NCBI GenBank assembly: GCA_900547285.1
Contig: URGF01000001.1
Span: forward strand, 1 to 44,872
Source of the DNA: an uncultured Collinsella sp.
GTDB taxonomy: Bacteria; Actinomycetota; Coriobacteriia; Coriobacteriales; Coriobacteriaceae
DNA: 44,872 nt
Direction: 5' to 3'
In this document: positions 34,793-44,872 of the stretch, piece by piece
Layout: each line of letters begins with the position of its first letter
How positions within the stretch are numbered: the first letter of the stretch is position 1
Notes under the pieces: model-generated
What the model was told of the DNA's origin: nothing
What the model saw: the letters and a program-made list of their open reading frames with translations, nothing else
The model's database searches: none
Made by a program: the position numbers and the translations under genes

Positions 34793-34848
34793 CAGGCAGG
34801 CGGGAGGGGGCAAAAGTAGCTAAAAAAGCCCCGTCCCAAATGAGCTAC

Positions 34849-35043
34849 TTAGCGCCAGGGGTCGGCTTCGAAGAGGGGCTCGCGCTCGGGGCGGCGATCG
34901 CTGTAGGGATCGTAGCCGTCGTCGTCCTCGTTCTCGGCACGGATATAGGGGTCGCGCGGCTTGGGTGCCGGCTTAGGCGCAGGCTTGGGTGCGGCGGGTG
35001 CGGCATCGGTCGCCGGCGTGTTCGTCTTGTTCTTGTCTGTCAT
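34849..35043 (-). CDS. Small hypothetical protein (64 aa; PAPK repeats, acidic C-terminal motif)
   Basis: AAGGAGA SD; strong codon bias; MTDKNK...EDDDGYDPYSDRRPEREPLFEADPWR. Confidence 0.6.
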   Translation of the reverse strand: MTDKNKTNTPATDAAPAAPKPAPKPAPKPRDPYIRAENEDDDGYDPYSDRRPEREPLFEADPWR

Positions 35044-41840: not shown

Positions 41841-44141
41841 TTACTCGGCAGCGGCCTTGAACTTGTTGTAGTTGATCAGGCAGCCGGCCTTGACGATGGC
41901 ACGTTCTTCGGCTGTCATATCGGCAATGTAGAGCTCAATCTGCTCGACCGCACCATCGGCGCGCACCACGTAGGCGGCGATGTTCTTGAGGTCGCCATCG
42001 AGCGCGGCACGGATGCCCGGCACAAAGACGTAGTCGCCCACCTCAAAGTTGGGCTCGGCCTCCATCTGGAAGGGCACCATGCCCCAGTTCATGACGTTGG
42101 AGCGATAGCGCTTGGTGGCGTACTCGTGAACGATGTTGGCCAGGCCGCCAATTACGCGCTGGCAGCTCGCGGCCTGCTCGCGGGCGGAACCGTCACCGGG
42201 CTTCTTGGCATAGAGCATGGAGCCAAACTCGGTCGCCTTGGCATCGGCCGCGACACCCACGCCGGCCAGTGCCTCGAACACACCGGCAAGCTCGGCATCG
42301 AGTGCCGCCAGGTCACCCGCGGCCTCGCCGGCCACGCGACGCTTCTCCACGGCGTCGACCTCCTTGGAGCGGCCCACGTAGGCCGGGTCGCGACGGCTCA
42401 GCGTAAACTCGGCCAGGCCCAGCGGGTTGGAGCGGAAGGAGCTCGTCTCGCCCGATGGGATCAGCTCGTCGGTCGTGGTGACCGGGTCCATGATCTTGGA
42501 GCACACCTTGAGCAGGATATCGTCGCCGAGGGGCTCCATCGCGGGCCACGGCTTGATGTTGGGGCCTTCGACCAGCTCGTCGGCAGGCTCCGCCTTGCCA
42601 AAGCCCCAGTACACGCGCTTTTTGTACGGCACGTCGTCAAAGGTGTACTCGCAGGCCTCGTCCCAGGTGTCCTCGGGCAGGTCGGTCGCCGGCGTCAGGA
42701 TGCCGCCGTTGGCAGCCGTCGCCGCAATGGAACGGGCGTCCATCAGAGCCACGGCGCTCAGCTGGCCATTGCCCGGCTTGGAGCCCTCGCGGTTGGGGAA
42801 GTTGCGCGTAGTGTGGCGGATCGACAGGCCGTTGTTGGCGGGCGTGTCGCCGGCACCAAAGCACGGGCCGCAGAATGCCGTGCGCACGATCGCGCCGGCC
42901 TCCATAAGGTCGTAGATATAGCCGCGGCGTGTAAGCTCGAGTGCCACGGGCTGGCTCGTGGGATAGACCGACAGCGAGAACTCGCCGCAGCCGGTGTTGG
43001 CGCCCTTGAGCACGCGGGCAGCCTGGACCACGGAGTCGTAGTTGCCGCCCGAGCAGCCGGCGATAACGCCCTGCTGCACGTGCAGCTTGCCGTCGACAAT
43101 CTTGTCGAGCAGGCTAAAGTGCGTCTTGCCCTCGCCGATCTTGGCGGCCTCGAGCTCCACCTCGTGAAGGATGTCCTCGAGGTTCTCGTTGAGCTCGTCA
43201 ATCTCAAAGCCGTTGGAAGGATGGAACGGCAGCGCAATCATGGGCTTGATGCTCGACAGATCGACCTCGACGCAGCCGTCGTAGTAGGCAACATCGGCAG
43301 GCTTGAGCTCGCGGTAGTCGTCGCCGCGGCCGTGCATGGCCAGGAATGCGTGCGTGTCCTCGTCGGTGGCCCAGATGCTCGACAGACAGGTGGTCTCGGT
43401 GGTCATGACGTCGACGCCGTTGCGGTAGTCGGTCGTCATGCTCGCGATGCCGGGGCCCACAAACTCCATGACCTTGTTCTTGACGTAGCCCTTGGCAAAG
43501 ACAGCGCGGATGATGGCGAGCGCCACATCGTGCGGGCCGACGCCGGGGCGCGGGGCACCCGTGAGGTAGATGGCGACAACGCCGGGATAGGCGACGTCGT
43601 AGGTGTCGCGCAGCAGTTGCTTTGCCAGCTCGCCGCCGCCCTCGCCCACGGCCATAGTGCCCAGAGCGCCGTAGCGGGTGTGCGAGTCGGAACCCAAGAT
43701 CATCTTGCCGCAACCGGCAAAGTTCTCGCGCATAAAGGAGTGGATGACGGCGATGTGCGGCGGGACGAAGATGCCGCCGTACTTCTTGGCCGCAGAGAGG
43801 CCAAAGACGTGGTCGTCCTCGTTGATGGTGCCGCCCACGGCGCACAGCGAATTATGGCAGTTGGTGAGCACGTAGGGCAGCGGGAACTGCTCCATGCCCG
43901 AGGCGCGCGCCGTCTGGATGATGCCGACAAAGGTGATGTCGTGGCTCGCCATGGCGTCGAAGCGAATCTTGAGCGCCTCGGGGTCGCCGGACGTATTGTG
44001 TGCCTGAAGGATCGAATACGCGATGGTGCCGCGCTTGGCATCCTCGGGCGTCTGCGTAATGCCGCGCTCAGCGGCCTCGGCTGCAGGCACAACCTCGCTG
44101 CCGCCGCGCAGGTAGATGCCGTCCTCGTACAGCTTAACCAT
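41841..44141 (-). CDS. Aconitase-family hydratase (YbhJ-like)
   Basis: [47 protein letters not shown] before ATG 44141. Confidence 0.9.
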
Positions 44142-44383
44142 ACTGTCTCCCACTCTGCCCGAAAGGCTCGGGCGCATAGCATACATTCGTTCAATATCGT
44201 GCCATAGAACGGTTGCGAGCGGGTTACGAATCTGCGCGTTCACTTTATCTCAGTAAAGCAAAGGACGAGCCCGGTGTGGGCCGACAGATTTGGCGCAAGA
44301 GTGTCCCTTTCGACTAGTCATTTAAGAACGTCCATTACAGTCGAAATTGTCAGCCCGGGACCGTCTCGGGCTACGATTGAGGC

Positions 44384-44545
44384 GCGCCCAGAACGGGCCG
44401 CCGACCGGGCGCCCGCGCACGGCCGAACGTCCCTGCCCCCGAGAGGGCCCGTTGGGTGCTGCCGGCGCGGGACGCGCCGCCCCCGACGGCTGATAGGAAA
44501 GTGCCGGGCAGGTGCCGCGGCTGGTAATGTGAGTGCCGAGGGGGA
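44384..44545 (+). ncRNA. Putative IS110 bridge RNA
   Basis: 5' hairpin (44386-44398) plus two stem/internal-loop modules. GAACGTCC (44425-44432) equals the left flank 44326-44333, and GTAATG (44524-44529) is complementary to 44333-44338. Upstream TTGTCA-N19-TACGAT promoter. Confidence 0.7.
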
Positions 44546-44582
44546 GGCCATCCGGTCGAACGACTACCGGAAGGATACCACC

Positions 44583-44872
44583 GTGAAAGCGCCATCCACC
44601 AGGCCCGCGGCCGTGCTCGGCCTGGACGTCGGCAAGTCATCGCACTGGGCCTGCCTGGTCGACCGCGACGGGGAGGTGCTGGCCAGCGCCCCCGTCCGCA
44701 ACAGGGAGGCCGAGCTCGACGCGCTGTTCGCCTCCGCGCCCGCCGGCACGCTCGTCGTCGTCGACCAGTTCCGCAACATAGGGTCCCTCGCCGTGAGGCG
44801 GGCCCGCGCCGCGGGGCTCGGGGTCGCCCACCTGCCCGGGCTCGCCGCCAGCCGCGCCGCGGGCCGGTTCGC
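44583..44872 (+). CDS. IS110-family transposase/recombinase, 3'-truncated
   Basis: Manual translation MKAPSTRPAAVLGLDVGKSSHWACLVDRDGEV...LVVVDQ shows the RuvC-like GxDxGK..H motif; GGAAGGA SD; absent from the ORF track because no stop falls in the window. Confidence 0.9.
   Translation, partial: MKAPSTRPAAVLGLDVGKSSHWACLVDRDGEVLASAPVRNREAELDALFASAPAGTLVVVDQFRNIGSLAVRRARAAGLGVAHLPGLAASRAAGRF

Follow-up and report, generated by a model that had tools for sequence, protein, structure and literature searches.

An IS110-group element of Collinsella whose left end carries a predicted bridge RNA directed at a hairpin repeat

Does the leader of a truncated IS110 insertion sequence (IS) contain a guide RNA, and to which DNA would such an RNA direct the element? 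The question is raised by the last 539 positions of a 44,872-nucleotide stretch of DNA from an uncultured Collinsella sp. (the window; contig C1:1-44872 of a 195-contig assembly that is 85% complete). A preliminary description, made from the letters of the window, had recognised there an IS110-family element with a bridge RNA in its left end, the target-binding loop preceding the donor-binding loop, and these points are borne out. Positions 44334-44872 very probably represent the left 539 bp of a 1413-bp IS110-group element of Collinsella, whose left end encodes a bridge RNA that targets a hairpin repeat. The ends of the element, its target, a covarying fold of the leader, the correspondence of guides to DNA and the covariation between the two are observed.

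The element, its ends and its target

Among 151 genomes sampled from the same family, 95 match the 539 bases, many of them at 98-100%. Full copies of the element at 98-100% identity are present in many Collinsella genomes, and Collinsella aerofaciens ATCC 25986 carries a copy at 98%. One full copy (L015:1501-2913) measures 1413 bp and shares 538 of 539 positions with the window part; the same length was found in 60 of 65 full loci. The right-end strings CTATAGGAACAC and TTGACAAAACTATAG occur 0 times each in the assembly that contains the window, and relatives were therefore used for reading the right end. The element starts with ATTACAGTCG directly 3' of ...ACGTCC in 20 of 20 related loci, so that the left boundary at 44334, proposed earlier, held in other copies. 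Seven loci extend far enough to be compared at the other end; they align through ...CCCCGACGGTTGACAAAACTATAGGAACAC and diverge exactly beyond ...GGAACAC. The right end of the element reads ...TTGACAAAACTATAGGAACAC, with ...CTATAGGAACAC (terminal GGAACAC) in 80 of 80 loci. The non-coding ends are 249 nt (left) and 30 nt (right), and the structured RNA is in the left one. A long left end and a short right end, with the RNA in the left end, place the element in the IS110 group and not in the IS1111 group.

The full protein, read from L015, has 377 amino acids and matches PF01548 (5.9e-33, 114.3 bits) and PF02371 (5.6e-22, 78.4 bits). The family model NF033542, 'IS110 family RNA-guided transposase', scores 199.5 bits on it against a cut-off of 140. 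Its sole relatives in the PDB are the IS621 and ISCro4 recombinases (E ~1e-7, C-terminal domain alone), and its C-terminal region aligns to the IS621 region around the serine of that protein. The part of the recombinase present in the window gives 51.7 bits with PF01548 (cut-off 29).

Junctions were surveyed in a second set of 80 loci, with 75 readable left flanks, 71 readable right flanks and 65 copies in which both junctions could be read. By their outer flanks these 65 full copies occupy 59 distinct sites. The left flank is GAACGTCC in 62 of 75 cases and ends in CC in 74 of 75; among right flanks, 68 of 71 have CCAA as their first bases. For the site occupied in the window, the flank anchor was located in 26 related loci; 22 of these are empty, and the site is filled in the window, G193, G238 and G042. 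Seventeen of the 22 empty sites read GAACGTCC directly followed by CCAATG. The other five are single-site variants (CAAATG once, CCCATG twice and CCAATGG twice). When positions 44314-44333 were used as a query, 35 matches with up to three mismatches were obtained in the host genome, most of which then read CCAATGACTA. The 14-mer GAACGTCCCCAAYG has 22 exact copies in the same genome; composition predicts 0.04, and the reversed control occurs once. The repeated unit is a hairpin, TAGTCRTT-(T/C)AAGAACGTCCCC-AAYGACTA, with the motif in its loop, and the units often stand head to head. Thus, the boundary, empty-site and copy-number data establish that the element targets GAACGTCC^CCAAYG, which lies in the hairpin loop of a dispersed genomic repeat resembling a repetitive extragenic palindrome (REP).

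The features of the element and its target are as follows, all on the plus strand.

44297-44333: left half of the REP-like hairpin repeat (target), with the left target GAACGTCC at 44326-44333
44334-44872: left 539 bp of the 1413-bp IS110-group insertion sequence, truncated at the contig end and delimited from full copies in relatives
44334-44341: left terminus ATTACAGT, columns invariant in seven aligned leaders, boundary the same in 20 of 20 loci
44334-44338: right donor ATTAC, within the left terminus
44336-44341: -10-like TACAGT, within the left terminus
44569-44575: ribosome-binding site GGAAGGA; AGGATAC is conserved 7-8 nt upstream of the start codon in 7 of 7 leaders
44583-44872: N-terminus of the IS110 recombinase (DEDD/RuvC-like domain, PF01548), 96 codons, open at the contig end

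Within 43900-44872 the order is an aconitase-like gene (minus strand, ending near 44243), a short intergenic stretch, the GC-rich leader from 44334 and the IS110 open frame, which starts with GTG at 44583 and runs past the contig end.

A second conserved block, AAGAGTGTCCCC(A/T)..GA, often precedes the target repeat (44297-44313 in the window, and copies on contigs C3, C28, C31, C69, C84, C117 and C130); the repeat family is therefore longer than the hairpin. The empty site of L065 (G191), orthologous to 44326-44333, has GAACGTCC followed by AATGACTA, with two Cs and not four, and reads GAACGTCCAATG, which may reflect a variant or a footprint left by excision. L132, L149 and L123 have rare insertions at sites that fit imperfectly, two with the right flank CTAACTGCC in another hairpin repeat and one with the left flank ...GTTGCGTTC. 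At L104:134-370 (G089) a copy is nested in the left end of another copy, past nt 235, with the flank ...GAACGACTACC; this site fits the guide poorly, so the event is off-target or nested. In the recombinase gene of L021, around the 3' end of the open reading frame, 18 nt (GGCTCAGGGCGATATACG) are duplicated in tandem, and a length of 1464 bp was measured for another of the 65 full copies. In a related subfamily, three copies (L038, L040 and L041, from G019) carry a 395-bp internal tandem duplication that takes in the donor loop, ribosome-binding site and beginning of the open reading frame; in L038 it covers the whole left end. These G019 copies would thus have two bridge-RNA modules each.

Fold of the predicted bridge RNA and its guides

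Seven leaders from six subfamilies were aligned at a mean column identity of 70% (the window, a 99% variant, the second IS of the host genome, and types from G144, G019, G014 and G101), and a consensus was folded with RNAalifold. The consensus fold has 52 pairs, 15 of them with compensatory changes, and the fold of the single leader has z = -2.42. Its architecture is that of a bridge RNA: a 5' stem-loop is followed by two stem-loop modules bearing internal loops, and a closing stem surrounds both modules. The stems given in the preliminary description agree with this consensus. The elements of the fold and the four guides are listed below, again on the plus strand; columns are those of the RNAalifold consensus, on which all stems but the first rest.

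44353-44371: 5' stem-loop of the bridge RNA, from the minimum free energy fold; other subfamilies have different, non-alignable hairpins there
44402-44408: 5' arm of the closing stem, pairs with 44552-44558 (columns 90-96 and 259-265, three compensatory pairs)
44412-44423: 5' arm of the outer stem of the target-binding loop, pairs with 44461-44471 (double-sided changes at columns 103/156, 106/153 and 108/152)
44425-44433: left target guide GAACGTCC(C), in the sense of the left flank (8-nt identity to 44326-44333)
44435-44448: inner hairpin of the target-binding loop (GCCC...GGGC; columns 123-126 and 133-136, conserved)
44450-44458: right target guide CGTTGG + GTG (CGTTGGGTG), antisense to the right flank CCAAYG and the CAC of the right end (junction pairing)
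44461-44471: 3' arm of the outer stem of the target-binding loop
44477-44490: 5' arm of the outer stem of the donor-binding loop, pairs with 44535-44547 (double-sided changes at columns 172/248, 173/247, 174/246 and 180/241)
44493-44499: left donor guide ATAGGAA, in the sense of the right end ...ATAGGAACAC, with which it covaries
44503-44521: inner hairpin of the donor-binding loop (columns 194-201 and 217-225), which holds GCC
44524-44531: right donor guide GTAAT + GTG (GTAATGTG), antisense to ATTAC preceded by the CAC of the right end; unchanged in all seven leaders
44535-44558: 3' arm of the outer stem of the donor-binding loop (44535-44547) and 3' arm of the closing stem (44552-44558)

The strands of the first loop match the left target in sense and the right target in antisense, and they covary with it; those of the second loop match both element ends. 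The matches were compared with shuffled leaders. The 8-nt sense match of GAACGTCC at 44425-44432 to the left flank is reached by 31 of 5000 shuffles, and the 7-nt sense match of ATAGGAA to the right end, just upstream of its last CAC, by 126 of 5000. Against the natural right junction CAC+CCAATG (as in L015), CGTTGGGTG forms a 9-nt antiparallel run with one G-T pair (13 of 2000 shuffles). Against the end-to-end junction CAC+ATTAC, GTAATGTG forms an 8-nt Watson-Crick run (6 of 2000). The GTG common to both right guides is the complement of the CAC of the right end, and the right guides reach significance solely with this CAC included. Exact matches to the right flank or to the left end alone were not significant (4766 and 2510 of 5000 shuffles), and matches to the left junction alone were at chance (570 and 1827 of 2000). 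The individual guide matches are thus moderately rare, and their positions and strands fit the layout of the E. coli element IS621, in which left guides are in the sense of the DNA and right guides are antisense, as set out in Durrant 2024 (PMC11208160).

The covariation of guides with DNA is stronger evidence than any single match. The host genome contains a second IS110 at C2:1-655 (L002, minus strand), 66% identical to the first, cut by a contig end and inserted after ...ACAACAGCCC. Its loop strands are GTCAGCCCC (RNA GUCAGCCCC), GGGAC+GTG and ATAGAGA. From this RNA a right flank GTCCC and a right end ATAGAGACAC were predicted ahead of retrieving copies. In relatives, where full copies of this type measure 1530-1535 bp, ATAGAGACAC was found in 14 of 14 readable right junctions, followed by GTCCC in 13 and by GCCCC in one. 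The left flanks end in CCCC, several of them in CAGCCCC. The empty target GCCCC^GTCCC belongs to another family of hairpin repeats; the host genome has 19 copies of the 10-mer, about 11 of which stand in hairpin context. The G014 type likewise combines an ATAGAGA guide with the right end ATAGAGACAC. A variant of the target guide, GAATGTCCC (RNA GAAUGUCCC), is accompanied by GAATGTCC flanks at two of its four loci; with the common guide, such flanks were seen in 0 of 71. An unoccupied target of the second type, GCCCCGTCCC, is also present in the window at 34828-34837, within gtagctaaaaaa...aaatgagctac (hairpin ~34806-34860).

Crossover, putative promoter and alternative explanations

Filled sites differ from empty ones by the insertion of ATTACAG...GGAACAC alone, and no 2-nt repeat accompanies it. 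Just before the crossover the donor has AC (at its right end) and the target CC (in its left flank), so that a single C is common to the two. The CC core that had been assumed for both partners is therefore replaced by unequal dinucleotides, and a core of the IS621 type, shared and covered by all four guides, was not found at these junctions. Placement of a shared CC core at target positions 7-8, 8-9 or 9-10 was rejected, as each predicts an unobserved left or right junction. A donor core CA two bases upstream, derived from ATAGGAA by a 7+2 rule, also predicts an unobserved junction and was rejected; none of the possible shared 2-nt cores yields the two junctions together.

The top strands of IS621 are cut just past a CT core present in both partners, according to Hiraizumi 2024 (PMC11208158). 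The junctions seen here match the top-strand product of that scheme, with the target CC at the left junction and the donor AC at the right. Under the IS621 scheme, 2-nt staggered cuts and exchange of both strands would leave a mismatch at the first of the two positions, and without repair bias half of the insertions would be expected with a left flank ...AC and a right end ...CC. This alternative pair was absent from all 80 right ends and all 75 left flanks surveyed, and from the 14 right junctions read for the other IS type. Since it is never seen, the top strand alone may set the product. It is conceivable, if rather doubtful, that the natural junctions record a top-strand-only product, that is, a single-strand transfer completed by replication. 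If so, the GUG shared by both right guides would be a device passing the donor 3' end to the target loop. Top-strand-only transfer has been proposed for CazIS110-1 and IS621 in copy-and-paste models (10.1101/2025.10.25.684509; 10.64898/2026.08.31.748434). The junction configuration of those models is the one always seen here; the evidence there comes from experiments, whereas here it is a population pattern.

A perfect TTGACA stands in the right end, 15 nt short of the terminus of the element. Across the joined ends, TTGACA is separated by a 17-nt spacer (15 nt from the right end and 2 from the left) from TACAGT at 44336-44341. The spacing of TTGACA to an invariant TACAGT is constant at 17 nt in all five subfamilies for which a right end was obtained. 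From these hexamers, the circle junction is read as a putative junction-formed promoter; promoters formed across joined ends are known for IS110 elements (Durrant 2024, PMC11208160). Four sequencing runs (three RNA libraries and one DNA) were available as Logan assembled contigs. The element is present as one unitig in run contigs (L015 1482-2917 in X15 and 1493-2923 in X17), and empty-site versions are present too. Such contigs carry neither RNA ends, strand information nor the circle joint, and we therefore infer expression and the circle from the family.

Transcription of the RNA, the circle, the pairing chemistry and the recombinase-RNA complex would follow the IS621 model. The excised circle would set TTGACA 17 nt upstream of TACAGT, and the resulting promoter would drive the RNA and the recombinase. 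The bridge RNA would be ~200 nt long, from about 44348 to about 44560 of the 249-nt left end. The 5' strand of the target loop, GAACGTCC, has the sense of the left target and would therefore pair with its bottom strand. The 3' strand of the same loop could accommodate both CCAAC and CCAAT through G-U pairing. In the donor loop, 5' AUAGGAA would match the right end and 3' GUAAU would pair with the first bases ATTAC, and the GUG on both 3' strands would complement the CAC of the right end.

The preliminary description had proposed an exact code, with the target GAACGT-CC-AACGG, the donor ...GAAAGTG-CC-ATTAC and a CC core duplicated at both ends. Its strings were correctly located (GAACGTCC at 44326-44333 and 44425-44432, CCGTTGG at 44449-44455, GAAAGTGCC at 44497-44505 and GTAATG at 44524-44529). 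GAACGTCC and the reverse complement of CCGTTGG are present in the loop strands, the left flanks end in CC with one exception, and the orthologous site of L065 reads GAACGTCCAATG. That the code holds is nevertheless very improbable. All 80 right ends terminate in GGAACAC, and GAAAGTG is absent there. The empty orthologous sites differ from the prediction in 21 of 22 cases (17 with GAACGTCC and CCAATG, and four that vary from this at a single base), the remaining one being L065 with its two Cs. The predicted 12-mer GAACGTCCAAYG occurs 0 times in the host genome, as does the form GAACGTCCAACG given for empty sites (that 12-mer with Y at the variable base; its two-C version is in one relative, L065), compared with 22 times for the four-C 14-mer. 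The target was misread because the final CC of the left target was fused with the initial CC of the right target. Among the four guide readings, the left target guide, equal to the left flank, and the right donor guide, which pairs with the element start, were retained, and the other half had been misread. The left donor guide had been taken as GAAAGTGCC; covariation sets it at ATAGGAA (44493-44499), or ATAGAGA where the right end is ATAGAGACAC, and the GCC of GAAAGTGCC is paired within the inner stem (44503-44505 with 44519-44521). The circle junction predicted from that code was not obtained either, and the right end and flank, named beforehand as its check, disagreed with it in detail. A complete internal promoter, transcribing the bridge RNA from the integrated copy, had also been suggested; the candidate is TTGTCA at 44347-44352, a 19-nt gap and TACGAT at 44372-44377. 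TACGAT is kept in 6 of 7 aligned leaders (TACCAT in G014), TTGTCA agrees with the -35 consensus at 5 of 6 positions, and the whole element lies within contigs of RNA libraries, though these give no evidence of a start. However, the 19-nt spacer exceeds the 16-18 nt range, and a promoter scan of 44200-44700 gave 0 promoter-like sites. The -35-like hexamer exists solely in the own type of the window (window and G141), and a start past TACGAT would lose the 5' hairpin. Set against the perfect right-end TTGACA, 17 nt from TACAGT and conserved in 5 of 5 subfamilies, an internal promoter appears unlikely.

The leader could also be an ordinary structured 5' untranslated region controlling transposase translation, the protein alone picking the site and the guide matches being by-products of repeated insertion into one repeat. 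The closing stem does end 10 nt upstream of the ribosome-binding site, and single guide matches are just modestly rarer than chance. But two IS types in one genome have different loop strands, with flanks and right ends differing correspondingly and the stems kept; a single-base guide variant tracks a single-base flank variant; and the protein family is one shown to be RNA-guided. This explanation is hardly credible. The bridge-RNA reading has its own difficulties, and the following observations weigh against it. The copy in the window lacks its right part, and profile search gave 0 matches to PF02371 anywhere in the 85%-complete assembly, so that the remainder of the element was not assembled. 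An Rfam scan of 43800-44872 (E <=10) returned two chance-level matches alone, to unrelated families (chrB-b and SNORD23), so that no curated Rfam model matched the region. The register of the left target guide shifts by one C among sites. The 3' strand of the target loop matches the empty target alone at chance (1023 and 1127 of 2000 shuffles), and a significant run requires the CAC of the donor. The left donor guide is unpaired with the three bases beside the crossover (RNA AGU in this element and ACU, GAU or UGU in others, against DNA CAC), and donor and target are without a common 2-nt core; both features depart from IS621. The joint of right and left ends was found in none of the assembled contigs of the four runs, a data type unable to show circles or RNA ends.

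Relation to known IS110 elements

The element would work like IS621. Its protein and RNA layout are those of the IS110 group, without the common core dinucleotide that is read by all four guides in IS621. As in IS621 (PDB 8wt6), the recombinase combines a RuvC-like DEDD domain with a Tnp domain, and a long left end is paired with a short right end. The RNA has the same order of 5' hairpin, target loop and donor loop, with left guides sense and right guides antisense. The target is a REP-type repeat, as reported in Durrant 2024 (PMC11208160) for IS621 and other IS110 members, and a sigma70-type promoter would likewise span the joined ends. The differences are several. The protein is distant, with the C-terminal domain alone aligning (E = 8.4e-8). 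The core described for IS621 is CT in both partners, whereas here the target has CC and the donor AC. The left donor guide omits the bases beside the crossover, each right guide is continued by an identical GUG that matches the CAC of the donor, and an extra long-range stem surrounds both modules.

Other relatives share parts of this pattern. ISCro4 / IS622 (Perry et al., 10.1101/2025.05.14.653916; PDB 9t56) is described with the same family, the same guide logic and handshake guides located 3' to the right guides; Hiraizumi 2024 (PMC11208158) also treats handshake guides, together with the cleavage positions. ISCro4 differs in its reported CT core, and the protein match is distant (E = 1.2e-7). 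ISPpu10 (10.64898/2026.03.19.712850) is reported as an IS110 element with all insertions at copies of one conserved intergenic repeat, in another host and at another repeat. The IS1111 group, with its seekRNA, has a DEDD recombinase of the same family and RNA guidance. Its RNA is placed by Durrant 2024 (PMC11208160) in a long right end with long subterminal inverted repeats, unlike the 249-nt left and 30-nt right ends found here.

The element is an ordinary case of a well-described system, and the NCBI family model already names the protein class 'RNA-guided transposase'. It may already figure among the bridge RNAs predicted by the thousands in Durrant 2024, or in ISfinder. A single end of an IS110 element allows its guide code to be read, yet without the right end the code is misread, as happened here when two CC pairs were merged and a stem was taken for a guide. 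Donor and target have unequal dinucleotides, and the outcome is one-sided across dozens of sites; both facts are relevant to the current debate over whether transfer is double-stranded or limited to the top strand. In one gut bacterium, two types of IS110 are directed to two different hairpin repeat families via altered loop strands, a natural example of reprogramming.

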